From Candidatus Iainarchaeum sp. (lineage in GTDB: Archaea > Iainarchaeota > Iainarchaeia > Iainarchaeales > JAGVWC01), in the NCBI GenBank assembly GCA_018304465.1, contig JAGVWC010000010.1:243473-307472 (forward strand): a stretch of DNA of 64,000 bases. Reading direction: 5' to 3'. The translations under genes and the position numbers were made by a program. The notes under the pieces are model-generated. The model made no database searches. It was not told the origin of the DNA and worked only from the letters and a program-made list of their open reading frames with translations. Positions 3,362-36,748 of this stretch are shown here, piece after piece (the stretch's first letter is position 1; every line of letters starts with the position of its first letter).

Positions 3362-4216
3362 TCACGGAAAAGAATTTGCATGAACTGACTTTGGAAATAA
3401 GTTGATTCCTTCGGTTCGCAGTTGTTCCGCCAAAATAGGATTCCGTGTAATAACCATTTTGATCGAGACGTTTTCCATGTAAAGCGAATAGACTTTTGCC
3501 ATGTCGAACTGTTCCATTGATTTTGTTTTTTCAAACAACGCATTTAATCGTTGTTTAAACTCCGTTGGATAAAAAATTTGAGCCACATAATCCCCTTCAA
3601 TCACCAAATCACCGTCCGCCGGATAAGTGACCTGATGAATGGATTGCTTGCCCATCTTTTGGGTAAACGTATTCCCAAACTGGTCCAACACCCCAGCACC
3701 ATGATACAACCCATAATAGGGAACTTGAAAAATTTTTTTCACTTGCTCCAAATCGCTTGGATCCAAACCCACCGGAAGCCAAGGATGACCCAACAGGCAA
3801 ACACGAGATTTTTTATCCGGATTAGGAAATTGATCATTAAAGACCCAAATAACAAAACGAATTAACTCAACCATACTATGGAATTCCAAATTCAGCACCT
3901 CTTTTTGCAACCAATCGGAAGGCAAAGAATAATTGGAATAGGATTGTAGACGCGCACTAAACGCCTTTACATTTAATATCCACTCAGCACTTAACGAAAA
4001 TTTCGACCCGTTTTTGACAACGACCCGCTCACCCTCCAAACTATGAAGCATTTTATGAACCGCTTGGTAGGAAGCTGAAATGGCATATTCTTTTTTGATA
4101 TCCGAAAATATTTCCTTCAAACTCAAAGGATGCCGAACGCTAAGTAAACTAATAATCGCGTCTTTTGTTGAAAGTGTTTTTTTCCCAAAACCTGGCAGAA
4201 CAATCGAAAGAGCCAT
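3362..4216 (-). CDS. Winged-helix transcriptional regulator with uncharacterised C-terminal domain (paralog 1)
   Basis: STKDAIISLL..HPLSLKEIF..SYQAVHKMLHSLEGERVV; similar to 9686-10531 and 10585-11436. Confidence 0.7.
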   Translation of the reverse strand: MALSIVLPGFGKKTLSTKDAIISLLSVRHPLSLKEIFSDIKKEYAISASYQAVHKMLHSLEGERVVVKNGSKFSLSAEWILNVKAFSARLQSYSNYSLPSDWLQKEVLNLEFHSMVELIRFVIWVFNDQFPNPDKKSRVCLLGHPWLPVGLDPSDLEQVKKIFQVPYYGLYHGAGVLDQFGNTFTQKMGKQSIHQVTYPADGDLVIEGDYVAQIFYPTEFKQRLNALFEKTKSMEQFDMAKVYSLYMENVSIKMVITRNPILAEQLRTEGINLFPKSVHANSFP

Positions 4217-4310
4217 CCAAATCACTACGTATAGAACATACAAAACATCGATAACCGGATTTATAAACATAACCAAGTAAAAAGTAGATAAAACTCAGAT
4301 TCTGATTTAC

Positions 4311-5332: not shown

Positions 5333-6025
5333 TCAAAAATCCAGTAAACCACGTATATCAGTTTTATTTTTGACTATTGGCCATTTTCTTTGTTCAGCAA
5401 TTTCAGAAAGTTTTTTGTCGGGGTTCACAGTAACTGGATGTCCCACATGTTCTAAAACAGGAAGATCTTGTGAGGTATCTCCAAACCCAAACGAAGATTC
5501 TATGTCAATATTATACTTTTTTATCAAAGCATAGAACAAAGTTTCTTTATTTTCACGAATTACTAGATTCGTTTTGACATTCCCCGAATAAACACCATCA
5601 ACAATCTCGCATTCTGTCCCATATAAATCATCAAAGCCCAAGTATTTCAATTGTTTTATTACTTCGATAGGGGAACCGCTCATTGCAAGGACCAAATAAC
5701 CTTTTTGTTTCATTAGTTTTACAAGTTGTTTTGAGTGTTCAAAAATATTTTTTTTGTATATAGCCATGAATGCTGCCCCCAATTTTTCAACTTTTTGGTG
5801 ATCGCATCCTTTTAACCCTCTCGCAAACACTTGCGGGAGTTCGGTTGCAACTTCAGCAGCACTTTTTGTTCCTTTAATATATTCTGATAAAAGAAGTTGT
5901 ATTTTTTTATTGGATTCGGAGCCTATGCACCCTTGTTGGTCCAAATACTTTGGAAATTCACAAATGATAAAACCTTTAACAAGTACACCATCAATGTCAA
6001 ATATTGCTGCTTTTTGCGCATGCAT
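5333..6025 (-). CDS. HAD-IB family phosphatase (SerB-like)
   Basis: FDIDGVL, MSGSP, GFGDTSQD, VNPD motifs. Confidence 0.85.
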   Translation of the reverse strand: MHAQKAAIFDIDGVLVKGFIICEFPKYLDQQGCIGSESNKKIQLLLSEYIKGTKSAAEVATELPQVFARGLKGCDHQKVEKLGAAFMAIYKKNIFEHSKQLVKLMKQKGYLVLAMSGSPIEVIKQLKYLGFDDLYGTECEIVDGVYSGNVKTNLVIRENKETLFYALIKKYNIDIESSFGFGDTSQDLPVLEHVGHPVTVNPDKKLSEIAEQRKWPIVKNKTDIRGLLDF

Positions 6026-6050: not shown

Positions 6051-6830
6051 TTAAAATATCTTGCCAGGATATTTATTTGCCAGAGAAACCATTTTTTTCA
6101 AGGTTTCAATACCTTTTGGTTCTTCAATGAGTTTACCAACATGAATAGCGTCAGCCTTATGTTTAAACATAAGATCAGCATCTTCAGGCGTTAAAATGCC
6201 ACTAGTTGGAATAATAAATAAATTCGTCTTTCTTGCCAATAATTCAACATGTGTTGCTGGCGGCCCAAGTTCGCTACCGGATCCACCAGCCATGATATAT
6301 ATTCGCATACCTAAATATTGGGCTGCTAAAGCGACAGATAAACTAATTTCGGGTTTTTCTCTTGGAATTGGAACGGCGCGTGCCAGCCAGTTAGCTGTTC
6401 GCATTGACCCCCGATCATCAAATACATACGCAGTAGGAATTGGTTCAAGAGTATTAGGCGTAACAGCAACTGAGTTCATTACCAACACATCACGCAAGAA
6501 AAATGGATTTTCTGAGTTCAAAACAGACATCCAATAAATTGCGGTTTTCCCTTCGTGGCCATTTAAAAAACACACTGCACTATTAGTCGGATAGGTTACT
6601 GTAGAAAAGTTATAATCCTTTACAGCCATATCTTGCACTATTTGTAATTTTTGTGGAGTGATAATGCTTCCGCCAAGCGCAATATGTTGAATACCCAAAT
6701 CAGAGATCGCTTGAAAAATTTTTGAAATTACTTCTACAGGAAGTTTGTCAGGATCTATTTGTGGGATCACTAGCGGGTGATCCTCTCGAAGAGAATAGAT
6801 TTTTTTTTCTACTTTTCCAAGGCGTTCCAT
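6051..6830 (-). CDS. Divergent geranylgeranylglyceryl-phosphate synthase (PcrB/GGGPS family TIM barrel)
   Basis: IDPDK, LGGS, MSVLNSENP, PIPREKP, AAQYLGMR match group II GGGPS; the YLEAGSG motif is changed to IMAGGSG. Confidence 0.8.
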   Translation of the reverse strand: MERLGKVEKKIYSLREDHPLVIPQIDPDKLPVEVISKIFQAISDLGIQHIALGGSIITPQKLQIVQDMAVKDYNFSTVTYPTNSAVCFLNGHEGKTAIYWMSVLNSENPFFLRDVLVMNSVAVTPNTLEPIPTAYVFDDRGSMRTANWLARAVPIPREKPEISLSVALAAQYLGMRIYIMAGGSGSELGPPATHVELLARKTNLFIIPTSGILTPEDADLMFKHKADAIHVGKLIEEPKGIETLKKMVSLANKYPGKIF

Positions 6831-6833
6831 TGT

Positions 6834-7982
6834 TTACTCAGCCCCTTCAAATAATAGCGCAAGATGACCTTTGGATACATCGACTTTAGGCTTTTTTAAG
6901 ATAATCTCTTTCCCATACACTCTAGAACATAGACCAGATAAAAATCCGCCGATCATTAAGAAGTCAATTTCTTTATAAAATTTAGTCCAAGGAAAATAAT
7001 TAATGATAACTTTTAATTTTTCTCCGCTTGAAAGAACTAAAACTTCGCCCCAGCCCAAAGCCGAAAGTAACTCCATTACTTCAAGCAATCTTCTTTTATC
7101 AATTTCAGGAAATAACTCTTGACCTATCCGAAACGCACAATCAAAAAGGATTTTTTTCATTTTTTCATTTTTCATTCCTTTTTCTAGCAGGTACATCCCG
7201 CTGACTTCCATTAAGAAAAAACGCTCCTTTTGTTTGTATACAATGATGCCTTCAGAATATGAAAACAATTTGGCGTTAAGATATGATTCAAAGGATTTTT
7301 TATATTGAATGTCCACTTCAGTATTAAAACTTCGATAAGTTGAAGCGTCCTCTAATAGATCATCTACTTGAGTTTCACTATATACTTGTTCTTTGAATTG
7401 CTTTGAAAGAACATCGACAGGAGCACAGGTCACCTTACAAAACTGATCAGACCCTTTGAACAAACTATCATACATATGACCTTCAATTTTTATGTCTTGC
7501 AGTATCCACGCGATAATTCCTGCTGCACCGGCAGTAGCAAGAAAAAAATCATACCCTAACTTTCTACACACAACAAAATTTTTCAGTTCATATTTCACAG
7601 TCTTATTTTTTACATCAGTCTCTTGCGAGATATTGCTCGCATAGGTGCCTTCGACAAATTTACTCGCAATCATCACCCAATCTTTTACTGCCTCGCCAGG
7701 GTGATCTTTAATATTTTCAAACCGCCCATTCAATGCAAAGCTATACCCAAACCGTTTGCCGATGGAATATAATGTTTGCTCACCTTCAGCCCCAAACTCA
7801 GTAACTAATTGCTTTTCAAGAGCAACAAAAAAACTTTCAGGGAGCAGAAGTTGTCGCAAGTTTACAGTGGTTTTTCCAGAGATTTTAAAATCTACAAAGC
7901 CAGGCCTATCAAAAATCAATGCCCGGGGGATTACAAAGCGTTTAACGTACAATCTAACAACGCTATCTTTTACATCCACCAT
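6834..7982 (-). CDS. Tandem V4R-like ligand-binding domain protein
   Basis: Two repeats of the V4R pattern (LYSIGKRFG..AGAAGIIAW..C; LSALGWGEV..GGFLSGLCSRVYG). Confidence 0.7.
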   Translation of the reverse strand: MVDVKDSVVRLYVKRFVIPRALIFDRPGFVDFKISGKTTVNLRQLLLPESFFVALEKQLVTEFGAEGEQTLYSIGKRFGYSFALNGRFENIKDHPGEAVKDWVMIASKFVEGTYASNISQETDVKNKTVKYELKNFVVCRKLGYDFFLATAGAAGIIAWILQDIKIEGHMYDSLFKGSDQFCKVTCAPVDVLSKQFKEQVYSETQVDDLLEDASTYRSFNTEVDIQYKKSFESYLNAKLFSYSEGIIVYKQKERFFLMEVSGMYLLEKGMKNEKMKKILFDCAFRIGQELFPEIDKRRLLEVMELLSALGWGEVLVLSSGEKLKVIINYFPWTKFYKEIDFLMIGGFLSGLCSRVYGKEIILKKPKVDVSKGHLALLFEGAE

Positions 7983-7984: not shown

Positions 7985-8731
7985 TTATCCGCCTGCTTCG
8001 ATAACAATGCCTTTTGCAGTAATATTATATGTTCGTGGACCGCCACGAATATCAGTTTTTCGCATTTTTCGAACTTCCAAGTTTCTATTCAAACTATCCC
8101 CAATCGAAACATGTTTGAGTAAAACTACACCGTCACATAAAAATTCACTAATTGTGTCCCGGCTCAAAAAATTTGTGGATTCAGGTAACTCAGAAATGAT
8201 TATTGATGTTGCTTTTTGATTTTTTAGTGCTTCAAGCATATCCACTATTGCTTTTCGAGTAGCAACTTCAGGCCCAAGCTGGAAAGAGAATTGGCTTTTT
8301 TGCATTCCCATTTTTTCTAAGATCTCAATATATGCAATCGTTTCTGCATAAATCCCATATGTCGAAATAGAATCCAAGACAATTCTATCCGGTTTAAACT
8401 CTTGGATTAATGCCTTAATTTCTTGTAATACCGCAGAGAAAATCATTTTGTTTGGAGTGTAAGTTACAACTTTCAATTTTTTTTCTTTTTCAAGTTTAAG
8501 CAAATCCCACCCCAATTCGTTTGATTGATCAATAATATCTTCTCTAATCTGTTCAAAACTAATCAAAAGCCCACGTTCATTATACTGCTTCACTCCATTT
8601 ACAAGGTATTGAGTAGCGAAGATGGTCTTTCCAGATCCTGTTAACCCTGACAGCAATACCAGATTCCCTTTTGGAAATCCCCCATTAATGAGTTCATCAA
8701 AACCAGATATCCCTGTTTTAACTCGTAACAT
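7985..8731 (-). CDS. KaiC-like single-domain RecA-superfamily ATPase
   Basis: KTGISGFDELINGGFP, Walker A GLTGSGKT, IVLDS, EVRKMR. Confidence 0.9.
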   Translation of the reverse strand: MLRVKTGISGFDELINGGFPKGNLVLLSGLTGSGKTIFATQYLVNGVKQYNERGLLISFEQIREDIIDQSNELGWDLLKLEKEKKLKVVTYTPNKMIFSAVLQEIKALIQEFKPDRIVLDSISTYGIYAETIAYIEILEKMGMQKSQFSFQLGPEVATRKAIVDMLEALKNQKATSIIISELPESTNFLSRDTISEFLCDGVVLLKHVSIGDSLNRNLEVRKMRKTDIRGGPRTYNITAKGIVIEAGG

Positions 8732-8823: not shown

Positions 8824-9582
8824 TTAGAGCGCCAAATCATCTATCTTAATTGTAATTCCTTTTGGCGACATCTCGTACCGTAGCGAGCCTTTTTCGTGAT
8901 CAGTGTACCGCATTTTTCGGATTCGAACACTGCGAAACACCGAAGAACCGACACCCAAATAACTTAACACAATCACGCCATCCGCAATAAACTCGGACAC
9001 GCCATCCGCACTGAGTCGCGCGGCTTCTTCAAACAATTCCGACGTCAACATCGTGGTAACTCCGTAGGCTCGAAGCGACGACAACAACCGATACAAAATC
9101 TGTTTCGCGATCAATTGTTCGGTTCGCGGAATCGGAGAAACCGTTTCGGCAATCTGAACCATTGAAAACGCATCGTGTTCCGCCAAACCCCCGACAATCA
9201 TGGCATCCGTCAAGGTAGACATGGAATCCACCACAATGCGTTTGGGTTTGAATTCTTTTAGAATCAGATCAAGACGTTTGAGAAAATTATCCCCGCCGGT
9301 AATATCATAAAAAACAACCTTGATCAAGCCCCGCTTGATCAAACTTTCCAAATCCCAACCAAAACCGAGACCTTGCTTGATCAATTCGGATTCTGTTTGC
9401 TCCGTAGAAATGTATACTCCGCGCTCATTGTTTTGCGCGCCGTGGACCAAAAATTGCATGCAAAAAGTCGATTTTCCGGTTCCGGCGCCGCCTGAAATCA
9501 AAACCATGTTGCCTTCGGGAAGACCCCCTTGCAACGCTTTATCCAATCCTTCGATTCCAGTTTTGGTTCGTGAAACAGCCAC
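8824..9582 (-). CDS. KaiC-like single-domain RecA-superfamily ATPase
   Basis: KTGIEGLDKALQGGLP, GGAGTGKS, IVVDS, IRKMR; GTG start chosen from an upstream AGGTG. Confidence 0.9.
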   Translation of the reverse strand: MAVSRTKTGIEGLDKALQGGLPEGNMVLISGGAGTGKSTFCMQFLVHGAQNNERGVYISTEQTESELIKQGLGFGWDLESLIKRGLIKVVFYDITGGDNFLKRLDLILKEFKPKRIVVDSMSTLTDAMIVGGLAEHDAFSMVQIAETVSPIPRTEQLIAKQILYRLLSSLRAYGVTTMLTSELFEEAARLSADGVSEFIADGVIVLSYLGVGSSVFRSVRIRKMRYTDHEKGSLRYEMSPKGITIKIDDLAL

Positions 9583-9685
9583 GAAAACACACCTAATAGC
9601 CCATTGGCTGACAAGATAACACCTTCGAGGTTTAAAAACCTTATTGGTAGGCGGATTTGAAGAAAAAGAAAGAATTACTAGCATG

Positions 9686-10531
9686 TCAGGAATGGGCGTA
9701 AAGAGAATTTATCTGGTCAAACGCCATCTTTGCCATTTGCGGATTTCGATAAACCCGGACTTTAATGGAGACACTAAGTGGCTTTTTAGCTAAAAATCGG
9801 GCGTAATGCAAAAAAACATCCAACAAGTTATTCGTCTTATCATATAGTGATTCTAGCCAGCGTCTGGAGTCCGAAGAAAAATCCACTTCCCAGTAATATG
9901 AACCAATTACTCCGAAATCTTTTTCAAAATTTCCGGAAGGATTGATCCGCACGGAAAAACCTGCATCAGAATACATTTTTTGCGCCCAACGATTAAAGTT
10001 AGTGTCTCGCGTAATCACCACGCAAATCTGTCCAGGAGTTGCATCAGACATTTTTTTTAACAAAGAAAAATCAGAAAAACGAAACGACAAAGGAAACCAC
10101 GCATTTCGAATCAACGCCATTGTCTTGTCGCCTTTTCGAACTGATTTTCCAAGTGTGACGAAAATTTTTGCCATTCCAACGCAAAACTCACTTATATCAG
10201 AGAATTCAAGAATCGTATCAGAGCCAAAAGAGATGGGAACACGCCTTGATTTAGAGCGTCGGAACTCCGAGTCTAACTCGCGTGAAAAATTTTTCAAGCT
10301 CAAAACCCACTGGGGATTCAACTCGAATTTTTTTTGTTTTGAAACCAGAACATCTTCCGCTTCAAGAGAAACCAACATTTTGTGCACGGCTTGGTACGAC
10401 ACGCGATCTACTAGCGTCCAATCCATTTTTTCAAAAACGCCTTTTGCAGAAAGCGGGCCCTGCTGGCCAAGAATCAAAATAATTTGATCACGTGTGGAAG
10501 ACTTTCCTAAAAGAATTGGCAATACCCCCAT
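9686..10531 (-). CDS. Winged-helix regulator (paralog 2)
   Basis: STRDQIILIL..GPLSAK..SYQAVHKMLVSLEAEDVL. Confidence 0.7.
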   Translation of the reverse strand: MGVLPILLGKSSTRDQIILILGQQGPLSAKGVFEKMDWTLVDRVSYQAVHKMLVSLEAEDVLVSKQKKFELNPQWVLSLKNFSRELDSEFRRSKSRRVPISFGSDTILEFSDISEFCVGMAKIFVTLGKSVRKGDKTMALIRNAWFPLSFRFSDFSLLKKMSDATPGQICVVITRDTNFNRWAQKMYSDAGFSVRINPSGNFEKDFGVIGSYYWEVDFSSDSRRWLESLYDKTNNLLDVFLHYARFLAKKPLSVSIKVRVYRNPQMAKMAFDQINSLYAHS

Positions 10532-10584
10532 AGATAACCCACTACATAACAAGTATTTTAGAACTAACGGATAAAAGAGTACCT

Positions 10585-11436
10585 ATGCAAGAATTCTGGT
10601 CCATTCCGGCGGCTCACGGCAACACCACTGTCAAAGACTGGACCATCCGGATTCTCACCCAAGAATGGCCGCTGTCGTTAAAACAAATTACGGAGCGCGT
10701 CCAACAGCAATCCGGAAAAACCGTTTCTCAACAAGCCGTGTTCAAAACGCTTCAAGATTTGGTTCGACAAAAAGTCGTTGAAAAACACGACAAGAGTTAC
10801 GCATTAAACAAAGAATGGATCACGCACCTCGCGAAATCCGTTCAAGATCTCCAGACCACGTATGAAAACCACGCTGGCCAATTGCCCGCACTCGGAAAAC
10901 TTGACACCAAAACCGTAATCGAATTTCATGATCCAAGCGCCGTCGCGGTCACCGTCGCCCAGATTCTGGCCTCGCGCGTACTCACCCAAGGAAAACCGGA
11001 ACCGTTTTATGGAATCAAACGACACGGCTTGTGGCCGCTTCGATTCAGCTTTTCCGACTTCGAACTCTTAAAAGAAATGACCAAATCCATTCCGTGTTAT
11101 TGCGCCGTAATCGGAAATGACCCCTTTGACCGATGGGTGGTTGAACAATACCTTAAAGGCGGATTCAAAAAATCCAAAACCGGCGCCAAAGCCGAATTCA
11201 AAGAATGGGACATCATGGCCCACGGAGAATACGTACTGACCATTCAATACGCCAAAGAAACCGAACAAGCCATCGAATACCTGTTCAAACAAATCAACAA
11301 CCTAAGCGAACTATTCGAAAAATTCAGCCAAGAAGAACTGTCCAAATTCAAATTCCAAGCAACGTTAACAATCGAACGAAACCCGGACCTCGCACGGCTC
11401 ATCAAAGAAAAATGCATGAAAATATTGGAAGAGTAA
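10585..11436 (+). CDS. Winged-helix regulator (paralog 3), divergent from paralog 2
   Basis: TVKDWTIRILTQEWPLSLKQI..SQQAVFKTLQDLV; shares W(F)PLxFxFSDFxLLKxM with paralog 2. Confidence 0.7.
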   Translation: MQEFWSIPAAHGNTTVKDWTIRILTQEWPLSLKQITERVQQQSGKTVSQQAVFKTLQDLVRQKVVEKHDKSYALNKEWITHLAKSVQDLQTTYENHAGQLPALGKLDTKTVIEFHDPSAVAVTVAQILASRVLTQGKPEPFYGIKRHGLWPLRFSFSDFELLKEMTKSIPCYCAVIGNDPFDRWVVEQYLKGGFKKSKTGAKAEFKEWDIMAHGEYVLTIQYAKETEQAIEYLFKQINNLSELFEKFSQEELSKFKFQATLTIERNPDLARLIKEKCMKILEE

Positions 11437-15447: not shown

Positions 15448-16005
15448 TTATTTGAGTTCCAATTGGTCTTTGGGTTCTTCTTTGGAAAAATCGAATTCGT
15501 GCACGGGTTTGACGATGAACTCGCAGGTTTTTTGATTCAAGGCAATGCACTGGTGTTCCACGCAATCCAAGTCGTTTCGAAACAACGCCGAAAACACGCC
15601 CGCAAACACGCCCCGCAACACGTGATCCACGGGTTTTTTCGCCTTGTTCACCAAACTACCCGCAATCGGATTATGATCCACCACCAAAATCGCGCGCTTG
15701 TTTTCCACGTCCAAATGCACGATCGAAACCCCGCCGATTCCGCACGCCGAAAAAAACTCGGCCAAAAACCGGGCGTTTAATTCCACGGAATTCGAAAGCG
15801 AAAAACCCGACACCAACGACCCTGCCACTTGTTTTTTAACCGCAGCGTACACCGCCCGATTAGTGGCCGGATCCGAGATCTCGGCCAGCCCCACCAAAAT
15901 ATCCACGGGAAGAATCGCAAACGGCGTGTTCATCAAAAAAAACTGGTTATTGGAAAACCGAATACCATTCGTGAAAATAAACCGGTCAAAAAACGGATTT
16001 AACAT
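15448..16005 (-). CDS. V4R (4-vinyl reductase) domain protein
   Basis: PVDHVLRGVFAGVFS..CVEHQCIALNQKTCEFIV. Confidence 0.85.
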   Translation of the reverse strand: MLNPFFDRFIFTNGIRFSNNQFFLMNTPFAILPVDILVGLAEISDPATNRAVYAAVKKQVAGSLVSGFSLSNSVELNARFLAEFFSACGIGGVSIVHLDVENKRAILVVDHNPIAGSLVNKAKKPVDHVLRGVFAGVFSALFRNDLDCVEHQCIALNQKTCEFIVKPVHEFDFSKEEPKDQLELK

Positions 16006-16093
16006 ACTTACACCAAAGGAGGTTCCCCCATAAAAAAATACCGAAAGACCCAAAAGAAAGGCTTTTTTAAGGAAAAACAACCACCAATCTATC

Positions 16094-17050
16094 ATGACGA
16101 CCACGTTCACGATGGATTTGCATTCGCATGTCATCGAAAAAAAAGTCAAAGCCAAGGATTACTGGAAAAACGTCGAACAAAAAAAAATCGACGTCATGGC
16201 CATCACCGAACACGCCCACTTCGATATCCGAAAAGCCTTTGAACGCGTCGCCAAAGAAAAACCCCGCGACAAAATACTGGTTCCCGGCGTCGAACTCAAC
16301 ACCGACATCGGACACGTCTTGTGCTACGGGCCCGACGAACGCGTATACGACCACAAAGAATTATTCGAATTCGAAGTACCCATCGAAACCTGCGTCGAAC
16401 ACGCCAAACAAGACAACTTAGTCTTAAGCTGCGCGCACCCCTGGGGATACACCCAAGACAGCGCCGCGTTTTTAATCGGACCCAAAAAACTCATGAAACT
16501 CATTCGAAAATACCCGATCGGAATCGAAGCCTACAACGGCATGGTCGGACACCTCTCCGACATCATGTACGAAAGCGGCTGGATCCGCCGACCCAACAAC
16601 TTTTTGGGTTTTCTTCAAAAAAACCGGGTCACGCGAAAAATCGGAATCGGCTCCGTCGGAGAAAAACTCCAAAAATCCCTCGACCGCCTCGTGTACAGCT
16701 ACCTAAACCGCATCACGGCCAGCGTCGAACTCGGCGAAAGCGCTTCGTTTATCACCGCCGGAAGCGACGGCCACTCCGCGGACCGCCTCGGCGAAGGCAT
16801 GCTCAAAATCAAAAGCCAAACCGAACTCAACACCCCCGAAGACATACTCGACTTAGTGGTGCATCACAAACAAGACGTGGTCTGGTGCGGCGTTGGCGTC
16901 CGCGAAGTCCGACCCGGCGTACTCGAAAAAATTTCGCCCCAAAAAATCAAACGCATGGAACTCGTCGACGGCCTCAAATACCTGGCCATGCGAAAAATCC
17001 GCGAACGCGTGATCGCCGACCGAAAAAAACGCGAACAACCCCACCCCTAA
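16094..17050 (+). CDS. PHP-domain metal-dependent phosphoesterase
   Basis: DLHSH, AITEH, PGVE, GHVL, AHP, GSDGH. Confidence 0.85.
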   Translation: MTTTFTMDLHSHVIEKKVKAKDYWKNVEQKKIDVMAITEHAHFDIRKAFERVAKEKPRDKILVPGVELNTDIGHVLCYGPDERVYDHKELFEFEVPIETCVEHAKQDNLVLSCAHPWGYTQDSAAFLIGPKKLMKLIRKYPIGIEAYNGMVGHLSDIMYESGWIRRPNNFLGFLQKNRVTRKIGIGSVGEKLQKSLDRLVYSYLNRITASVELGESASFITAGSDGHSADRLGEGMLKIKSQTELNTPEDILDLVVHHKQDVVWCGVGVREVRPGVLEKISPQKIKRMELVDGLKYLAMRKIRERVIADRKKREQPHP

Positions 17051-18177: not shown

Positions 18178-19035
18178 ATGGAGAATATTGTTTCCACAAG
18201 CTATGGGTTTTCACAACCACCCGTTTTTCAACAAAATAAAAAAGGATTCAAAAATCAAAGTTTTTTTGTTTCTTCGGGTTCCAAGCGGTATGTTTTTGTG
18301 CCTATTGCTAACCCCTATTTTCTCAAAGCCTTGAAAATACTGCGCCAAAGAGGATTCAAAACCCCCGAACTTATTCAAACCACAGACAAAAAAGAATATG
18401 TTGAAGTCGGCGGAAAAAAATGGTGCTTACTATCTTACCTTCCCGGGAAACCAGTTCAAAGAAACAAAATTTCGCGCGCACAGGTTTTTCAAATTGCAAG
18501 GACTGTCGCACTATTTCATAAGACCTTTGAAGAGAAAGTCCGACCTTCACAAGCTTTTTTTGCGCCACGTTTTCCTGAGAATTGCCCGGAAGAAATCCAA
18601 AAAGAGGTTGGTGCACTGGTTGCAAATTTTAAGCGCCAAGCAACCGGCATGAAGTCCACTCTAATCCACGGCGACTTGGTTTTGGAAAATATTCTATTTA
18701 GCAAAGGAAACTTGTCTGGCCTGATTGACTTTGAACATCTTAGATACGGCCCCGCTATTTACGATCTAGCGGCAGTTCTAACTGAAATTCCCCCGAGCTT
18801 ACATGCTGATTTTATAGAGCAATATACGCGTCTCAATCCGTTATCCTCGACAGACATAGGTTTAATCAAACCAATGACTCGTTATTACACTTTGTTGTAT
18901 GCATTGTTCGGAATGGAAGCTTTGCCTAAAGTTACCCGTGGGCAAAAAAAGCGATTATTAGAAAAATTAAAAAGTAAAGGACTTGAAAAAAGGGGGCTTC
19001 TTAGGAATGCACAAAAACGAAGACGATCTCGTTAG
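18178..19035 (+). CDS. APH/homoserine kinase type II-like phosphotransferase
   Basis: IHGDLVLENILF, LIDFE, YDLA. Confidence 0.85.
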   Translation: MENIVSTSYGFSQPPVFQQNKKGFKNQSFFVSSGSKRYVFVPIANPYFLKALKILRQRGFKTPELIQTTDKKEYVEVGGKKWCLLSYLPGKPVQRNKISRAQVFQIARTVALFHKTFEEKVRPSQAFFAPRFPENCPEEIQKEVGALVANFKRQATGMKSTLIHGDLVLENILFSKGNLSGLIDFEHLRYGPAIYDLAAVLTEIPPSLHADFIEQYTRLNPLSSTDIGLIKPMTRYYTLLYALFGMEALPKVTRGQKKRLLEKLKSKGLEKRGLLRNAQKRRRSR

Positions 19036-21592
19036 TTTTTACGTACCAACATTTAATTCTGAAAAGACCATCCGGCGCTGTTTGGTTTCTATTCAAAACC
19101 AAAACATTACCCCGAAAGAAATACTTGTAGTCGACGCCGGATCCACGGACAATACCGTAAAAATTGCACAAGAACTTGGAGTAAAAACAATCGTAAAAGA
19201 TTCAACATTAGGGCTGGCAGCTGCGCGAAACATTGGAATACAAAACACAACTGGCGAATATGTGGCCTCTGTAGATTCCGATGTTGAACTATCTCCTGAA
19301 TGGTTAAAAATAGTTCTCAACGCCATCAAAAAAGAAGGCGTTGGGGGCGTAGGCGGTCGATTAATCGAAACAAGCAGTATTTACACAATTCAACAATGGC
19401 GTTTCTTTCATATGCAACAAAACTGGGGCGAAAAAGAAATAACCCCCAAATTCTTGTTTGGTGCCGACAACATATATCGCAGAGAAGCTCTGCTAAACGC
19501 GGGTCTGTATGACGAATCGTTCACTACAAATCACGAAGATGTTGATATCTGCGAAAAGCTGACAAAGAAAGGTTATAGACTTTTATACCTGCCTGAGGCG
19601 ACTTGTTTTCACCTCAGGGAAGACACTGTCAAATCCAACCTTGACAATTATTGGAACTGGTTTAAAGACGAAAACTGCGAAAAAAATCGATACGCAGATA
19701 TTCCTCAAAAGCTTGTGTGGGATATCGACGAGTCATTTAAATTGCTGGAAATGGACGTTAAAGAAAAAAAGTTCCACTTTGTTTATCCGAGTTTTCTGCT
19801 AAGCATTCACCACATACTGAGCGATCTAAATTTCTATTATTGCATTGGCCAAAGAGAGAATCAGCAATATTTCTCCGAAATTTTTAAACGGATTAAAGAA
19901 AACTTGATTCAAGAAATTGTTCCGTCTATACTTGAAAAAGAATTAATCATAAATGCAATTTTACGAGACTTAGAGTACATTACACCAGGAAAATTGGACC
20001 GTAAACGCTATGACAAATATCTAAAAAAAATAGAACTTTCCATAAAACCAAACCCAAACAATCTCGTTAGCAAGCTTGTTTCTTACTTTAAAAAAAGTAT
20101 CAAAAAAAAGGTTCCTGACCAAGAGCTATTCTGGAAAATGATTTGCGTTTCAATTCAACGCATTGAATACGAAAACAAAGAATATGCTGGATTAAAGCAT
20201 AACTATCGTGTTGCATTGTTAAACTTGCCATGGACCAAAGGAGATCGAAAAGGCGTCCGAGCTGGATCAAGATTCCCATTCACACTCGAATCTGAAACCG
20301 CTATCCCCTGCTATGTGCCGTTCCCTTTTTTCTTGGCATATACGCATTCCATGCTAAAGAACGCGGAAATAGGAGTCGTAACTACCGATTGTATTGGGGA
20401 AGGAATAGACGAAACTGAATTACGACTTCGAATTGTCACATATAACCCAGATCTCATTGTAGTAGAAACCGCAACTCCTTCATTCCAAAACGATATTCAA
20501 ATAGTTGAACGATTAAAAAAAACAAACAAAGGCTCAAAGATTTGCTTAACGGGGGCCCACGTTTCAACATTTCCGGCTAAAGTACTATTTGATCATGATT
20601 CTGTCGACTTTGTTATTACTGGGCAATTCGAAAATAAAGTAGTCGAATTGAGCAAAGCCTTGAAGGGAAAAACAGATTTAAGCTCGATTAAGGGCCTCTT
20701 TTGGAGAGACGGCGAGGAAATAAAGATGAGCGAAGCAAAAAGTTCAGGCCCATTATTTAGTGAATTTCCATGGCCAGAACGATTAACTTTGCCTTTGTAC
20801 GCTTACAATGACAAATTTAGTAACCAAATAGTCGAAATGCCAGAACCCAACGCGCAAATGCTCGCAAGCCGAGGTTGTCCTTACAAATGTAGTTTTTGCC
20901 TTTATCCCCAGGTCATTTACGAAGGAAAGTGCTACCAGTCCCGAGAGTCGGTTGATATCGTAGACGAAATGGAAGAACTAGTCAAACGATATGGGATTCG
21001 CGCCATACAATTTGACGATGATACCTTCAACATTAACGATTCTCGAATGAAAGAACTCGGAAATTTAATTCTGAACCGAAAACTGAACACAAAATGGACA
21101 TTTATGGGTAGAGCCGACTTGTGCGTTGAAGAAACAATGCGGTTATTTAAAAAGGCAGGATTAATTGCTTTAAAGTTTGGCGTAGAATCCGCAAACCAAG
21201 AAATCGTAAACCGTTGTGGTAAAAACCTGCAAATCAAATCTGTAGAGAAAACAGTCCAAATGTGTAAAATACTCGGAATAAAAGTCCATCTGACATTCAC
21301 TTTTGGCTTACCTGGCGAAACTAAAGAAACAATCCAAGAAACCATTGACTTTGTCAAGCGGGTCAATCCAGACTCAACTCAGTTTTCAATCACTACCCCG
21401 TTTCCGGGAACAAACTTATATAATGATCTAACCAAAGGTCAGAAGACAGACAACCTAGATTGGAATTTATTTGACGGAAATCGAACCGCCGTAATGCAAT
21501 TGGACAATTTGAGCGCCGCTGATTTGGAAAACGCCTTAATTCGAGCTGAAAAAGAATGGAAAACCTACATAGGACAGAGGCAAAAAAAATGA
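19007..21592 (+). CDS. GT2 glycosyltransferase fused to a B12-binding radical SAM enzyme (HpnJ-like)
   Basis: VPTFN, VDAGSTD, ARN, VDSD, ED in the N-terminus; RAGSRFP, GAH, SRGCPYKCSFC, FDDDTF, FGVES, FGLPGET, TPFPGT. Confidence 0.85.
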   Translation: MHKNEDDLVSFYVPTFNSEKTIRRCLVSIQNQNITPKEILVVDAGSTDNTVKIAQELGVKTIVKDSTLGLAAARNIGIQNTTGEYVASVDSDVELSPEWLKIVLNAIKKEGVGGVGGRLIETSSIYTIQQWRFFHMQQNWGEKEITPKFLFGADNIYRREALLNAGLYDESFTTNHEDVDICEKLTKKGYRLLYLPEATCFHLREDTVKSNLDNYWNWFKDENCEKNRYADIPQKLVWDIDESFKLLEMDVKEKKFHFVYPSFLLSIHHILSDLNFYYCIGQRENQQYFSEIFKRIKENLIQEIVPSILEKELIINAILRDLEYITPGKLDRKRYDKYLKKIELSIKPNPNNLVSKLVSYFKKSIKKKVPDQELFWKMICVSIQRIEYENKEYAGLKHNYRVALLNLPWTKGDRKGVRAGSRFPFTLESETAIPCYVPFPFFLAYTHSMLKNAEIGVVTTDCIGEGIDETELRLRIVTYNPDLIVVETATPSFQNDIQIVERLKKTNKGSKICLTGAHVSTFPAKVLFDHDSVDFVITGQFENKVVELSKALKGKTDLSSIKGLFWRDGEEIKMSEAKSSGPLFSEFPWPERLTLPLYAYNDKFSNQIVEMPEPNAQMLASRGCPYKCSFCLYPQVIYEGKCYQSRESVDIVDEMEELVKRYGIRAIQFDDDTFNINDSRMKELGNLILNRKLNTKWTFMGRADLCVEETMRLFKKAGLIALKFGVESANQEIVNRCGKNLQIKSVEKTVQMCKILGIKVHLTFTFGLPGETKETIQETIDFVKRVNPDSTQFSITTPFPGTNLYNDLTKGQKTDNLDWNLFDGNRTAVMQLDNLSAADLENALIRAEKEWKTYIGQRQKK

Positions 21593-23055
21593 CTGCGGAA
21601 AATAAGTATCGGGTTTCAAGCTACGTGGCTGAATACAAGAAAAAAGACCTCTTTGCGTATTACAATAATAAGAATCTTCAAGTCATTTATGGAAAAAAGC
21701 CTCTCAAAAAAATAATCGATGACCTTAAACAACCCCAAGAATTAGAAAACTATATTAAAAAGTTTCCAACTAAACGCGACGAGTTGAGACCCATATTACA
21801 CACGCTCGTGAGTGAAGGATATTTAGTTACTGGGACAGAGGATCCGATCTTGAACAGTTCAGAAATTGAAGAACGTAACCGAATCAACCCGAACTTATTG
21901 CGATTTTTGCTTACGTTTGATTGCAATCTGGAATGCAAGTACTGCCAAATCAAAACCAATCTTTTTAGTGAATATAACAAGCCAATTACAAGAGAAGAAA
22001 TCGACAAATCATTTGAATTGTTCAAGAAAAATACAAATGAATACCACACCATTTCGATGTCTGGCGGAGAACCAACGCTAAACTTCGAGTTAGTAAAATA
22101 CATTGTCGAAAAAACAAAAAAAGAACTAAAGCCAGGAAAATATCGTATCGTTTTGTCTTCCAATGGAACAATGATTACTGACGGCATTGCCGACTACATC
22201 GTCAAAGAAAATTTATTGCCAATCATTTCTTTGGACGGACGCGAAGAAGACAACAAAATGCGCGTTTACCGAAATGGTCTTGAATCATACAAAATCGTGT
22301 TAGCTGGGTTAGAAAAACTAAAAAAGCATAATTGTAAAAAAATCGCAATATCAATGACTATCGGAACCCACAACATAAAAAATATCAAAAAAATAATGAA
22401 AAACATTATCAATGAAATCGAACCAGTAAGCGTTGGCTATAATTTCGTTCACTACCCTTACTTTGACAATCAACATTACTCTCTTCCAAACATCGACGAT
22501 TACTCAAAAGCAGTCATTCACATTTTCACCGAACTCCGAAAGCACAAAATTTACGACGATCAGTTTTTTCGAAGACTCCAACCCTTTGTAGAGAGAAAAG
22601 TTCGGATAAAAGAATGCTCTGCACTTGGTGGGGCTCTTAATCTTGTGCCCGGTGGACTCATTGGACCCTGCAAAACACTCCTGACAAGCAGACATTTTTC
22701 ACAACCAATCAATATAACCGAAAAAATAGCGGATTCTAAAATCTTTACTGAATTTTCAAACCGAAACACATTATCACTAGAAGAATGTCAAAATTGCGTA
22801 GCCAGAACCATTTGCGGCGGGGGCTGTACTTTTGATTCATTTGTGACCTATCGTGACATTTCCCATGTAGACAAACGAAACTGCGATTACATAAAAAAAG
22901 TTCTGGAATTCATGATCTGGGACTTGTATCGGCTAGCCCAAAAGAAAAAGACAGAACTGTTAATTCCAACGCAAGTGGACCGTCAAAAAATGTACGGTGG
23001 TATTGCTCTTTCCAGTACAACTCTTGCGGAATCCGTTGGTCACAAAATTTATTAA
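21589..23055 (+). CDS. Radical SAM/SPASM domain protein
   Basis: CNLECKYC, GGEP, SLDG; SPASM cysteines C..GPC..CQNC..ICGGGC..C; N-terminal RRE/PqqD-like extension. Confidence 0.9.
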   Translation: MTAENKYRVSSYVAEYKKKDLFAYYNNKNLQVIYGKKPLKKIIDDLKQPQELENYIKKFPTKRDELRPILHTLVSEGYLVTGTEDPILNSSEIEERNRINPNLLRFLLTFDCNLECKYCQIKTNLFSEYNKPITREEIDKSFELFKKNTNEYHTISMSGGEPTLNFELVKYIVEKTKKELKPGKYRIVLSSNGTMITDGIADYIVKENLLPIISLDGREEDNKMRVYRNGLESYKIVLAGLEKLKKHNCKKIAISMTIGTHNIKNIKKIMKNIINEIEPVSVGYNFVHYPYFDNQHYSLPNIDDYSKAVIHIFTELRKHKIYDDQFFRRLQPFVERKVRIKECSALGGALNLVPGGLIGPCKTLLTSRHFSQPINITEKIADSKIFTEFSNRNTLSLEECQNCVARTICGGGCTFDSFVTYRDISHVDKRNCDYIKKVLEFMIWDLYRLAQKKKTELLIPTQVDRQKMYGGIALSSTTLAESVGHKIY

Positions 23056-24074
23056 ACCAAAAAATAGTCAAAGAACTGCTTGCAAGCGCGGTATTGAGGG
23101 ACCGACAAGTTTTTTCCTGTTTTAGTCAAAAAGACCGATGGTTCGGTTAAAACCCACGTTGAGCTATTTCGAATTGCATCAAAAAATCTATCCTTTGCCC
23201 TAAACGATAACATGAGGCTTTTAGCGATACCAAAAAAGGAAAGATTGTGCAGCATATCCGAATCGAAAAGGACTTTCGCTTCAATGGTGGATGGTTTGGG
23301 AATGAATCCGGGCGGTTTTCCTCTTTGTTTTGCGAGTTTTTGAAATCCTTCCAAAGAACCTGAATGTTGAAGAACACAAAGCGCCACGCGGTTTGCAAAT
23401 TCATTATTGAAGCTGTTTTCAAAAAGTTTTCTTCTTGCAATTTTACGACCGATATAGTGGTGGTTTAAGTCATTTCCAAATCCCTTTCCAATATCATGTA
23501 GCAGCGCGGCTGCGTCTACTACCAATTCATTCGCGTTTTCTGCAATTGCTACTTTTTTTGCAATGGATCGAACTTCTTGGACATGAAAATAATTGTAATC
23601 GGAACTGTTCTTCTTTACAAAATATTCCACGGGCCGCATATGCTGCTCGTAAAAAGCCAATATTTTTTGTCGCTTATTTTTATTTCCTAAGAAAGAGTAC
23701 GCCGCAAATTCCTCTTCAAACGACACTAGGGGAATATTCAGACCCTCGTGCTTAATGAAAATAATTTTTTCTGGATTAAATAATCGGATCTTTCCTCGCT
23801 TTGTCTTTTTGACCGGATCTCGAATCAAATGAACCGTTGGAGAAAAATTGAAGAAAGCCTGCTTACCCGTTGCTGTTTGTTTGGTCGAAATCACTCGATC
23901 TTTAAATTGATGCGTAAACAGCTTAAAAGACTTATAATCACAAATGACATCAAGGTCATCCCCCGTAACTTTGAGGCCTTGTACGCCCAATGCGAAGCTT
24001 CCGCAAAAAGCCCAGTTTCGGTTCTTTTTCAAGCAATTATTAATTATTTTCACGGTTTGGAACGTACAAAACAC
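23052..24074 (-). CDS. Nucleotidyltransferase + HD-domain fusion
   Basis: GSFAL..DDLDV NTase motif; H..V..ALLHDIGK..HH..H..DSD HD motif. Confidence 0.75.
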   Translation of the reverse strand: MFCTFQTVKIINNCLKKNRNWAFCGSFALGVQGLKVTGDDLDVICDYKSFKLFTHQFKDRVISTKQTATGKQAFFNFSPTVHLIRDPVKKTKRGKIRLFNPEKIIFIKHEGLNIPLVSFEEEFAAYSFLGNKNKRQKILAFYEQHMRPVEYFVKKNSSDYNYFHVQEVRSIAKKVAIAENANELVVDAAALLHDIGKGFGNDLNHHYIGRKIARRKLFENSFNNEFANRVALCVLQHSGSLEGFQKLAKQRGKPPGFIPKPSTIEAKVLFDSDMLHNLSFFGIAKSLMLSFRAKDRFFDAIRNSSTWVLTEPSVFLTKTGKNLSVPQYRACKQFFDYFLV

Positions 24075-25766: not shown

Positions 25767-25950
25767 TTGAACAAAATTGTTTTTGTTTTGGGAATTGGCC
25801 GCGTGGGATTACCCATATCATTAGCCCTTTGTGAGGCGGGGTACACGGGGTATGGAATTGACGTCAGACCAGAACACATTGAAACACTCCTCGCAAAGAA
25901 ATTTCCGTTCATAGAAAAAGGCGCAAAAAAACTTTTAATAAAAACAGACA
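25767..25950 (+). pseudogene. N-terminal fragment of a UDP-glucose/GDP-mannose dehydrogenase
   Basis: VLGIGRVGLP..G.D..PFIEKG Rossmann start; similarity ends after ~60 aa at the convergent DHH gene. Confidence 0.7.
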
Positions 25951-25970
25951 ATTTTTTGGCGAAAAAAAAA

Positions 25971-26978
25971 TCAGATGATTTCGCGGACTTCGACGCTTTT
26001 CTTTTTTTGTTTCAACTCAAACACCAATAATTCCAAGGCCCGATGCAACACGTCTTCGGTGTTCGAATGAAACGAATTAAAACCCGCAGCCGCGACATGA
26101 CCATTGCCATGACCGCCAAACGCCGGCACCAATCCCTGCATGACCGCAACCAAACTCACTTTCGAATCCTTGACAAAACCACTCGACGAACGAGCGCTTA
26201 CAACCAACGCGTTCGAACCATGATCGATTCCCGCCACCAACGCCACGTCACAACCCAACGCCACCAGCGAAGCCGCGGCTTCGGACTCGAAAAAATTCAC
26301 GGTGGACAACGCCACCAAAAAACCGTCGACTTCAAACAACCGCATGCGGCTCGCCGAACGCAGTTTCGCGATGCGCTCCGAAACCGGTTCTTGGATAACC
26401 ACCAATCGCTTGATGGATTCCACGTCCGACCTGGATTCTTTCAAACAAAACGACAAATCATCCAAGACATGCGTATCCAACACGGATAGCATCGCCGTAT
26501 CCGACAAAATACCCGCGGCCAACGCCTGCAAGGCTTTTTTCGAAAGTTTCAATTTCGCTTTTCGAATTTCGGACAACACGACTTGCGACGCGGATAACCT
26601 GTTCGAATCAATTTCGACAAAAGCTTTTTTGGGCCGATCCGCTTCCGGCAAATGATGATCCAAAATCAACACCGGGCCATTAAACGAAGAAATGCTTTTC
26701 GAAAGTTTTCCCGCGTGACTAGGCGAATTAAAATCAAGCAACGCCAAAGCGTCAAACCGATCCAACACCGGGTCTTTCACGGCTTTAATGCCAAACCGGT
26801 CCGCGAGTTGTAACGCATGCAACCCCATGTGATCGGGAAACCCCACGGTACAATTACAGGAAAGGGTTTCTTTGAGCGCAATCGCGCTCGCCAACGAATC
26901 CACGTCGGTTCCGGCGTGACACAACAAAAGCAGACGGGTGGATTTGGAAAGTTTTTTGACAAACGATTCCAAAGCCAT
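25971..26978 (-). CDS. DHH/DHHA1 phosphoesterase
   Basis: CH..DVDS, LDF, LDHH, SDT, SARS, GHGNGHVAAAG. Confidence 0.85.
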   Translation of the reverse strand: MALESFVKKLSKSTRLLLLCHAGTDVDSLASAIALKETLSCNCTVGFPDHMGLHALQLADRFGIKAVKDPVLDRFDALALLDFNSPSHAGKLSKSISSFNGPVLILDHHLPEADRPKKAFVEIDSNRLSASQVVLSEIRKAKLKLSKKALQALAAGILSDTAMLSVLDTHVLDDLSFCLKESRSDVESIKRLVVIQEPVSERIAKLRSASRMRLFEVDGFLVALSTVNFFESEAAASLVALGCDVALVAGIDHGSNALVVSARSSSGFVKDSKVSLVAVMQGLVPAFGGHGNGHVAAAGFNSFHSNTEDVLHRALELLVFELKQKKKSVEVREII

Positions 26979-36683: not shown

Positions 36684-36748
36684 TAGTCGATTGGTAAGAC
36701 GTCCGCTTGACGTGCGGAAGACAGGGGGTCCGATTCCTCCCTGGCCCA
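36677..36748 (+). tRNA. tRNA-Val(GAC)
   Basis: Acceptor GGGCTAG/CTGGCCC, anticodon arm TCCGC-TTGACGT-GCGGA, T-arm GGGGG-TCCGATT-CCTCC. Confidence 0.9.

Follow-up and report, generated by a model that had tools for sequence, protein, structure and literature searches.

The window analyzed here is a stretch of 64,000 nucleotides from Candidatus Iainarchaeum sp. (GCA_018304465.1, contig JAGVWC010000010.1). It encodes a 259-residue protein, hereafter the PcrB-like protein, related to PcrB and to geranylgeranylglyceryl phosphate synthase (GGGPS; EC 2.5.1.41), the enzyme with which archaeal membrane-lipid synthesis begins. This protein belongs to a divergent clade from DPANN archaea in which the residues predicted to hold the prenyl-diphosphate donor are kept, while those that would position and activate glycerol-1-phosphate (G1P) have given way to a different, equally fixed set. 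Its gene sits in a conserved cassette with genes for a KaiC-like ATPase, a 382-residue partner with a V4R/Bet3-like predicted fold and a HAD phosphatase. The cassette is previously undescribed and the PcrB-like protein is a variant of a known enzyme family. The explanation we favor, with a probability of about one half, is that the protein is a neofunctionalized offshoot of the group II GGGPS: an active prenyltransferase with a rebuilt acceptor site that operates within a self-contained cassette.

Family assignment of the PcrB-like protein

The protein belongs to the PcrB/GGGPS superfamily by its match to the Pfam profile PF01884 (E 1.1e-17; 64.7 bits, exceeding the gathering cutoff of 23.9; profile positions 9-215 of 226). 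Its scores against the NCBIfam GGGPS models all fall under the curated cutoffs: NF003198 (145.8 against 247 bits), TIGR01769 (96.8 against 161.55), TIGR01768 (87.2 against 113.25), NF003202 (91.5 against 353) and NF003201 (82 against 388). Clade members are named phosphoglycerol geranylgeranyltransferase or GGGPS/HepGPS in the JGI and NCBI collections. A sequence search of the PDB recovers the group II GGGPS of M. thermautotrophicus (4mm1; E 1e-24) as the best match, with the T. acidophilum (6jo3), F. johnsoniae (4jej) and T. volcanium (6nke) proteins as further solved relatives; neither the group I enzymes nor MoeO5 are matched at E<=1. An AlphaFold2 (AF2) model built on 84 clade sequences has a predicted local distance difference test score (pLDDT) of 95.9 and displays the eight strands and the α0 helix (residues 6-15) of the modified (β/α)8 barrel. 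Its top Foldseek matches are the group II GGGPS of M. thermautotrophicus, T. acidophilum and T. volcanium, with template modeling (TM) scores of 0.85-0.92; MoeO5 and PcrB lie far behind (E ~1e-11 to 1e-9, 16-19% identity).

The clade and the group II GGGPS (4mm1 and 6jo3) thus share a Pfam family, the modified TIM-barrel fold and ~25-26% identity over the structural alignment. They also have in common the DP motif, the GGS motif, the first conserved Tyr, a PRxKP segment, the GSG loop and the aromatic anchor. Unlike these enzymes, the clade has Ile and Ala for the second Tyr and the Glu, Thr-Ser for the Gly-Gly of β7, a four-residue insertion after β3, and the distinctive residues Q24, Y99/W100, D138, R140 and H230. 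It has also lost the residues typical of columns 70, 96 and 107, does not reach the NCBIfam GGGPS cutoffs and occurs in a different, conserved gene context.

Active-site and pocket residues

According to a review of the family (PMC9385802), the phosphate of G1P is bound by a motif comprising the S-G of βα6, the G-G of βα7 and the V-G-N of βα8 (with Thr in group II). The same text calls Y124, Y165 and E167 of the Af enzyme (Y134, Y178 and E180 of the Mt enzyme) strictly conserved and responsible for stereospecificity and catalysis, with the Glu polarizing the C3 hydroxyl; the Mg2+/diphosphate is bound by Af D13 or Mt D25, possibly also by Mt E27/E28 and S54 (PMC9385802).

The HMMER alignment to 4mm1 runs ungapped through the three decisive segments: mrlfyleagsg/mriyimaggsg, ivgggi/iptsgi and vvtgt/ihvgk. 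An earlier note, made from the sequence alone, had named precisely these substitutions against group II motifs. All three altered strings are present (RIYIMAGGSG at residues 176-185, PTSGI at 208-212, HVGK at 230-233) and the reference motifs that it quoted agree with the alignment. The motifs that the note listed as retained are likewise found (IDP at 25-27, GGS at 53-55, VLNSEN at 103-108 for the SxLNS segment, TANWL at 145-149). All these positions and the window coordinates were checked by re-translation with a script. A shift of register that would restore the Tyr and the Glu is excluded: the flanking anchors, (Q/E)(Y/F)LGM and GSG, are equally spaced and MAFFT yields the same columns.

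We compared the columns of 89 full-length clade members with those of 143 canonical family members. On the donor side, D26, which aligns with Af D13 and Mt D25, and S/T55 are each retained in 89/89 clade members, and the GSG at 183-185 is kept. The first conserved Tyr (Af Y124, Mt Y134) persists as Y135 in all 89. In contrast, the second Tyr is absent: column 179 has Ile in 86 and Val in three clade members versus Tyr in 127 canonical rows. The same holds for the catalytic Glu, where column 181 has Ala in 81 and Gly in eight versus Glu in 105 and Asp in 37. The β7 loop reads Pro (87), Thr (86), Ser (89) against canonical Val (117), Gly (133), Gly (137), and column 230 has His in 86 against canonical Val in 118. 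Contrasts of this size lie well outside what chance would give. The phosphate cradle is kept in part: S184-G185, G211 and G232 are present, and the G-G of βα7 is T209-S210. The claim that the G1P-binding and catalytic residues had been lost therefore holds for the Glu, the second Tyr and the β7 Gly-Gly and was overstated for the remainder, as half of the phosphate cradle and Y135 persist. The description of the Tyr as conserved is likewise correct for most of the family, though not strictly: 16 of the 143 canonical rows, one of them a fragment, lack Tyr at column 179 or an acid at 181.

The replacements are as fixed as the retained residues: S210, D138, R140 and W148 are found in 89/89 members, P208 in 87/89, and T209, H230 and I179 in 86/89. 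The residues Q24, Y80, Y99, W100, F137, D138, R140, W148 and F205, on or near strand ends, are invariant in the clade. The variant chain of 5nf1 carries Ala in place of the Trp with which W148 aligns. In hexameric group II GGGPS the aromatic anchor, on helix α5', goes together with a cationic residue of the adjacent protomer, for which column 70 would be no more than a candidate. Conversely, residues conserved in canonical rows have been lost at columns 70 (K/R), 96 (D) and 107 (R); the basic residue of column 70 (Lys in 116 and Arg in 20 of the 143 canonical rows) is absent from the clade. At column 233 the Lys of the window protein is a minority state (Asn in 36, Ser in 18, Lys in 13 and Thr in nine of 92 clade rows). 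As judged from these alignments, the predicted acceptor side is rebuilt and the parts predicted to position and activate the glycerol are gone, with the donor side still in place and the phosphate cradle partly so. In the AF2 model, the new invariant polar residues Q24, Y80, Y99, D138, R140 and H230 are placed on the predicted catalytic face, with D138 and R140 as a candidate new base and anion binder. It stands, on this comparison, that the protein is very probably not an ordinary G1P-using GGGPS, its catalytic Glu being gone, and this conclusion is strengthened by the clade-wide extent of the substitutions, the long stem branch described below and the sub-cutoff NCBIfam scores.

Extent, constraint and origin of the clade

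A search of 5.8 billion proteins with the window protein recovers 91 other clusters with E from 4e-115 to 3.5e-34 and 44-67% identity, after which there is a sharp drop to ordinary GGGPS (E>=7e-27, <=34% identity). The same gap between the clade and ordinary GGGPS is seen in an exhaustive HMMER search of 1.84 billion representatives. Those few members that carry a name come from metagenome-assembled genomes (MAGs) assigned to Altiarchaeota or Diapherotrites. When 185,579 prokaryotic species were scanned with one genome each, in a collection that does not include the window's own genome, the gene was found at 20 loci, the best being 62% identical. All 20 are in DPANN MAGs, labelled Iainarchaeum, Micrarchaeota/Micrarchaeia, Altiarchaeota, Nanohalarchaeota or simply archaeon.

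The alignment of 84 members has a mean column identity of 56%, with 20 invariant and 38 near-invariant columns, and the open reading frame (ORF) is intact in all 18 loci that contain the whole gene or its first 207 residues. The clade has fixed substitutions, invariant residues of its own and intact ORFs; hence, the pattern is one of apparent purifying selection on a new site, not of relaxation or decay. This does not support the term pseudoenzyme, which the earlier note had used, in the sense of a relaxed, decaying site: the rebuilt positions are fixed across the clade.

The phylogeny against the PcrB family, which that note had proposed as a check, recovers the clade as monophyletic with support 100 in a FastTree analysis of 165 sequences, and its support is again 100 in an IQ-TREE analysis. 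Its stem, with 1.24 changes per site, is the longest of the 163 internal branches of the FastTree tree (median 0.10). A subgroup of eight near canonical relatives helps in reconstructing the order of changes (P0093, labelled Aenigmarchaeota by NCBI, P0124, P0133, P0135, P0143, P0160, P0131 and P0159). P0093 and P0124 are the best-scoring matches outside the clade (E 7e-27 and 1e-23). Like the clade, these eight have an aliphatic residue (Ile/Val/Leu) at column 179 and His/Gln at column 230. They retain the Glu/Asp at 181, the Gly-Gly (or Ala-Gly-Gly) loop of β7, an F-P-G after β3 and an E-P after β5, and lack D138 and R140. In a quick IQ-TREE run of 68 rows under LG+C20, made without bootstrap and involving a long branch, the eight fall on the clade's side of a branch with an SH-aLRT (approximate likelihood-ratio test) value of 97. 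The Tyr-to-Ile and Val-to-His changes thus probably predate the clade and would be compatible with a presumably working enzyme. Only within the clade itself would the Glu have been lost, the β7 loop have become Thr-Ser and D138 and R140 have been acquired. In the eight relatives, Ile/Val/Leu at the β6 Tyr position is always accompanied by His/Gln at the β8 position that is otherwise Val. This resembles a covarying pair and suggests that the His/Gln might replace the Tyr hydroxyl.

The conserved gene cassette

In the window, the PcrB-like gene is part of a tight same-strand run of two KaiC-like genes, the 382-residue partner, the PcrB-like gene and the HAD phosphatase (Table 1), the last three spacers being 2, 3 and 25 nucleotides. 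To assess its conservation, we compared the ORFs of the 20 loci with those of the window, giving 21 sources in all. The partner gene is the immediate upstream neighbor of the PcrB-like gene in 18 of the 19 sources with upstream DNA; in the exception, L016, a single flavoprotein ORF is placed between them. A KaiC-like gene is directly upstream of the partner gene, again in 18/19 sources, the exception being L017, where a flavoprotein occupies its place and KaiC-like pieces are found downstream. Two KaiC-like genes in tandem also occur upstream in L002 and L003. The KaiC-like ATPase adjacent to the partner stays below the cutoffs of the NCBIfam KaiC models. In all 19 sources with enough downstream DNA, a HAD-family gene follows the PcrB-like gene: 12 are of one subfamily, six are HAD-IB like that of the window and one is HAD_2 (in L014 and L020 the assignment is by BLAST clustering, their own Pfam matches being weak or absent).

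Seven of the 21 sources additionally have a geranylgeranyl-reductase-family flavoprotein: between the PcrB-like and HAD genes in L008, L009, L012 and L019, beside the cassette in L014 and L017, and more distantly in L016. The window's own cassette has none. The scores of these flavoproteins remain below the curated cutoffs (TIGR02032, 128-141 against 158.8 bits; NF008519, 176-220 against 303 bits). Beyond these components the neighborhood is not conserved across the 20 loci in the 7-kb scan. A Pfam scan of the 144 ORFs of at least 100 amino acids within 7 kb of the gene at these loci detects no UbiA, polyprenyl synthase, glycerol-1-phosphate dehydrogenase (G1PDH), CarS or other isoprenoid gene. 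Hidden Markov models (HMMs) of the canonical family and of the clade, run on six-frame ORFs, find no second, canonical GGGPS anywhere in the 64 kb of the window, nor at the 20 loci up to 10 kb from the gene; the search for the canonical form returned three weak matches to other barrels and nothing more. PADLOC reports no defence system: the KaiC-like pair gives weak P-loop matches (E 7e-5 and 9e-6) and the other ten proteins give none. Our literature searches found no description of this clade or cassette. Together, we take the cassette, rather than the archaeal lipid pathway, to be the probable functional unit.

Several other genes recur around the cassette. A family of ~280-residue winged helix-turn-helix (wHTH)-like proteins is present in eight of the 21 sources, with five copies in L005 and three paralogs flanking the cassette of the window (3362..4276 on the minus, 9686..10552 on the minus and 10585..11436 on the plus strand). 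It has no Pfam or NCBIfam match; the ESM Atlas groups it with hypothetical proteins of DPANN archaea and offers weak leads, no more, to FilR1/TrmB-like regulators. NUDIX hydrolase genes are found within 7 kb of the cassette in four of the 20 loci (L008 5139-5600, L009 13359-14105, L014 7524-7994 and L016 12210-12710), as are toxin-antitoxin-type genes of the AbiEii/HEPN/nucleotidyltransferase kind (L002, L005, L014 and L016). These NUDIX and toxin-antitoxin-type neighbors suggest that the cassette is often located in variable genome regions.

Table 1. Cassette genes, a flanking gene and active-site features of the PcrB-like protein, in window coordinates
Feature	Coordinates	Strand	Remarks
PcrB/GGGPS-family TIM-barrel protein, 259 aa	6051..6830	minus	ATG start; intact ORF
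HAD-IB family phosphatase	5333..6025	minus	PF12710 and PF00702; TIGR01490 113.6 bits (cutoff 98.3); DxDG motif; 25 nt downstream of PcrB-like stop
382-aa partner, V4R/Bet3/MopR-sensor-like predicted fold	6834..7982	minus	Stop codon 3 nt before PcrB-like ATG
Single-domain KaiC-like ATPase	7985..8731	minus	PF06745 E 5.1e-56; stop 2 nt before partner ATG
Second KaiC-like ATPase, 92 nt upstream of the first	8824..9684	minus	PF06745 E 1.7e-54
wHTH-like protein, possible regulator weakly linked to cassette	3362..4276	minus	DPANN family
D26-P27, retained putative Mg2+/prenyl-diphosphate Asp (Af D13, Mt D25)	6750..6755	minus	Asp in 89/89 clade and 141/143 canonical rows; role after PMC9385802
β6 RIYIMAGGSG; canonical Tyr is I179, catalytic Glu is A181, GSG loop kept	6276..6305	minus	
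β7 loop PTSGI in place of VGGGI; phosphate-binding Gly-Gly is T209, S210	6195..6209	minus	
β8 HVGK in place of V(T/I)G(T/N); H230 also in nearest canonical relatives	6132..6143	minus	
D138-D139-R140 at end of β5	6411..6419	minus	D138 and R140 each 89/89; canonical I/V and S/G/P
TANWL; W148 aligned with mtGGGPS aromatic hexamer anchor, invariant in clade	6384..6398	minus	
Four-residue insertion LNGH (G91 conserved), β3-β4 connection	6555..6566	minus	In 0/143 canonical rows

The 382-residue partner protein

Neither Pfam nor NCBIfam matches the partner, even with the threshold relaxed to E 0.1, and the V4R profile PF02830 does not recognize it. The partner has ~97 relatives bearing the same taxonomic labels as the PcrB-like clade, and the two genes carry consecutive NCBI locus tags (JW778_00910/00915 and NTY48_06535/06530). 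Some of its homologs are named 'predicted hydrocarbon binding protein' by JGI. Nineteen orthologs are 49-63% identical to the window copy, with a mean column identity of 63% and 64 invariant columns; none of these is a Cys. Near the N-terminus they share an invariant loop (residues 27-44) of the form P-G-F..F.I-S-G-K-T....R-Q, in which the pLDDT drops below 50 at residues 35-38; by its sequence, this ISGKT loop looks like a phosphate-binding or modifiable loop.

The AF2 model (pLDDT 84.8) has an order of helices and strands that occurs twice. With Foldseek, about half of it matches the phenol-sensor domains of MopR/PoxR/DmpR, TRAPP Bet3/TRAPPC3, the V4R protein MJ_1460, H-NOX and BcsD, with E from 4e-4 to 1e-2 and TM scores by target of 0.5-0.58; the Foldseek probability is 1.0 for MopR, PoxR, Bet3/TRAPPC3 and MJ_1460. 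These folds bind small hydrophobic ligands. We describe the partner as a tandem protein on account of the repeated secondary structure of the model and the half-length Foldseek matches; the comparison of its N- and C-terminal halves with hhalign is not significant (probability 0.3%). The likeness to V4R, Bet3 and MopR-type domains is at the level of the fold only: the partner is about twice the size of a V4R domain and differs from them in its invariant ISGKT loop, the absence of an invariant Cys and the absence of a PF02830 match. Bona fide V4R (PF02830) genes are also found near the cassette at L002 (11946-13178), L005 (1415-2047), L007 (3636-4205) and L011 (7374-7976) and in the window (15448..16155). 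The one in L002 encodes a 410-residue double-V4R protein just downstream of the cassette.

Functional interpretation

The neofunctionalization that we favor would work as follows: the barrel would still ionize a polyprenyl diphosphate on Mg2+ and pass its prenyl chain to a phosphorylated acceptor, whose mode of binding would differ from that of G1P in known GGGPS. The acceptor could be another compound altogether, or a glycerol phosphate in another pose. The lost Glu would be replaced in its role by D138 or H230, and R140 would bind an anionic group. The prenylated phospho-product might then be dephosphorylated by the HAD phosphatase of the adjacent gene and, in some lineages, saturated by the geranylgeranyl-reductase-family flavoprotein. 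Finally, the hydrophobic product may be held by the co-encoded V4R/Bet3-fold protein, which would work with the KaiC-like ATPase. A different acceptor is favored by the rebuilt pocket, which shows stronger constraint than its canonical counterpart and contains polar residues that are both new and invariant, by the HAD phosphatase in 19/19 assessable sources and by the flavoprotein in 7/21.

Two relatives of known function offer parallels. MoeO5 acts in the moenomycin pathway, where it transfers farnesyl to 3-phosphoglycerate, and represents a changed acceptor within the fold family. The precedent, already drawn in the earlier note, is a fair analogy by fold (3vk5; Foldseek E 1.7e-11, TM 0.78-0.80) and extends no further than the fold: identity is 16%, there is no PDB sequence match at E<=1, and MoeO5 is bacterial and encoded in an antibiotic gene cluster, unlike the DPANN cassette gene. 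PcrB makes a product from which the phosphate is reportedly removed in a later step, and the HAD gene of the cassette offers a parallel to this. Bacillus PcrB, a group I heptaprenylglyceryl phosphate synthase, shares the fold of the window protein at 16-19% identity, again with no sequence match at E<=1. Unlike the window protein, it keeps the G1P pocket (PMC9385802).

Several observations weigh against this favored explanation. The general-base Glu is lost, and D138/H230 would be a candidate substitute only; that D138, R140 and H230 lie in the pocket is predicted from strand ends in the modeled secondary structure, not from distances. Sensing and signaling, not metabolism, are the usual business of KaiC-like ATPases and V4R-type domains, and the HAD-IB enzyme could be a protein phosphatase whose substrate is a phosphorylated KaiC-like protein instead of a lipid phosphate. 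Only seven of the 21 sources have the flavoprotein; the window's cassette lacks it, and its scores do not reach the curated geranylgeranyl-reductase cutoffs. No prenyl-diphosphate synthase or other isoprenoid gene is found among the 144 ORFs within 7 kb at the 20 loci; therefore, the supply of the donor is not linked to the cassette. A search for fused or longer forms of the PcrB-like protein yields none at E<=1e-5, which is weak evidence.

The main alternative, to which we give a limited, though appreciable, share of credence, is that the barrel is a non-catalytic sensor. It would bind a prenyl diphosphate or lipid phosphate and signal together with the V4R-fold protein, the KaiC-like ATPase and a resetting HAD phosphatase; the ATPase would be an autophosphorylating hub and the nearby wHTH proteins the output. 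KaiC-like ATPases are reportedly signaling hubs. The replacement of the catalytic Glu by Ala/Gly in 89/89 members is what a sensor would present, as is the strict linkage to a KaiC-like ATPase and to a protein with a V4R/Bet3/MopR-sensor fold; wHTH-like genes occur nearby in 8/21 sources, lipid or isoprenoid pathway genes are absent within 7 kb and the surroundings of the cassette are otherwise unconserved. Yet sensing at the donor site alone needs no new invariant polar acceptor pocket (D138, R140, S210, T209 and H230), the Mg-binding Asp and the phosphate loop are kept, and in several lineages a geranylgeranyl-reductase-family flavoprotein inside the cassette points to chemistry on the prenyl chain. 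The context fits the sensor and the prenyltransferase equally, apart from that flavoprotein and the conserved polar pocket. The earlier note had posed this same choice between a sensor and an enzyme with a different acceptor: its premise that the protein is not an ordinary GGGPS holds up, and the present data do not decide between the two. A further, doubtful alternative is that the clade is a divergent but genuine GGGPS, in which the base has moved to D138/H230 and which makes geranylgeranylglyceryl phosphate (GGGP) from G1P, or from glycerol-3-phosphate in lineages reported to be without G1PDH; the PcrB-like gene may then be the sole PcrB-family gene in its genome. The nearest canonical relatives have Ile/Val/Leu at 179 and His/Gln at 230 and yet keep the Glu/Asp; therefore, part of the 'loss' is older than the clade and compatible with a presumably working enzyme. 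Y135, the GSG, G211 and G232 are kept, and the JGI and NCBI names of clade members are those of GGGPS. A study of Micrarchaeota (PMC12892359) finds mostly one K17104/arCOG01085 gene per genome and reports that G1PDH was lost in the ancestor that Iainarchaeota, B1Sed10-29 and Micrarchaeota share. In contrast, the Tyr/Tyr/Glu triad is the one called strictly conserved and responsible for stereospecificity and catalysis (PMC9385802), and both phosphate-binding Gly residues of β7 are also replaced. The stem of the clade is the longest in the tree, and the cassette has no DGGGPS, CarS, G1PDH or geranylgeranyl diphosphate synthase neighbor. We also know of no active family member with Ala at the Glu column. 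The clade is moreover rare (20 loci in 185,579 species), yet GGGPS is reported in all major Micrarchaeota lineages (PMC12892359). A GGGPS-like cluster of the ESM Atlas, commonest in Iainarchaeota, has the PF00977 overlap typical of canonical members, which hints, as a lead only, that canonical GGGPS copies exist in Iainarchaeota.

To a decaying pseudogene, a chance match or an alignment artefact we attach practically no probability. The loss of the catalytic residues itself, and nothing more, speaks for such a reading, which is refuted by the conservation of the clade: the ORF is intact in the window and in 18 loci, the 84 members have 56% mean column identity with 20 invariant columns, the alignment is ungapped between fixed anchors and the AF2 model has a pLDDT of 95.9. 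At the other extreme is a bolder proposal that we consider speculative and unlikely: the four-gene cassette as an undescribed archaeal small-molecule system, in which the barrel makes or captures a prenylated phospho-compound that is the ligand of the double-lobed V4R/Bet3-fold protein, the latter controls the KaiC-like ATPase and the HAD phosphatase resets the system. This would be a device for lipid- or isoprenoid-status signaling, or for lipid handling, in DPANN archaea reported to have lost G1PDH. In a still bolder variant, the invariant flexible ISGKT loop of the partner, once phosphorylated, could itself be the acceptor, docking in the phosphate cradle of the barrel.

Other features of the window

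The cassette lies in the part of the window with the lower guanine-cytosine (GC) content: positions 1-26000 have 40.8% GC (35-39% in the cassette genes) versus 47.8% at 26001-64000. Exactly at the junction (25767..26030) lies a truncated UDP-glucose/GDP-mannose dehydrogenase, reduced to an N-terminal fragment of 87 residues, whose reading frame runs into that of a DHH-family gene converging on it; an island boundary, a rearrangement and an assembly join are all possible explanations. The low-GC part also has a cluster at 18178..24074 that encodes an APH-type kinase, an 869-residue protein in which a GT2 glycosyltransferase is fused to B12-binding and radical SAM domains, another radical SAM protein and a protein with an HD domain. 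The remainder of the window has a 1635-residue MCM protein with intein-splicing and LAGLIDADG domains (48533..53440), a 731-residue ParA/Mrp-like NTPase with an intein (40003..42198), a 363-residue ORF with a LAGLIDADG domain (35592..36683) and a methionyl-tRNA synthetase with an unusual C-terminal B3_4 domain (45948..48119; PF03483, E 2e-21). At gathering score, Rfam recognizes two tRNA genes in the window (36677..36748 on the plus and 38096..38166 on the minus strand) and nothing else.

Implications

The acceptor pocket of the PcrB-like protein appears to be rebuilt, and it is conserved in about ninety relatives encoded in the same small cassette; for these reasons the protein probably has a different job from that of the lipid enzyme named by its database label. 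The case that some DPANN archaea can produce membrane lipids by themselves draws on the presence of GGGPS (PMC12892359). If this clade does not make GGGP, some of the inferences of lipid autonomy in DPANN archaea will need rechecking. The clade also offers a natural case of a TIM-barrel prenyltransferase that would have kept its donor site while its acceptor site was rebuilt, with an intermediate subgroup still extant. Its invariant coupling to a KaiC-like ATPase and a protein of V4R/Bet3 fold would tie isoprenoid chemistry to archaeal ATPases of largely unknown function, and, as a small system of four soluble proteins, the cassette is directly testable.

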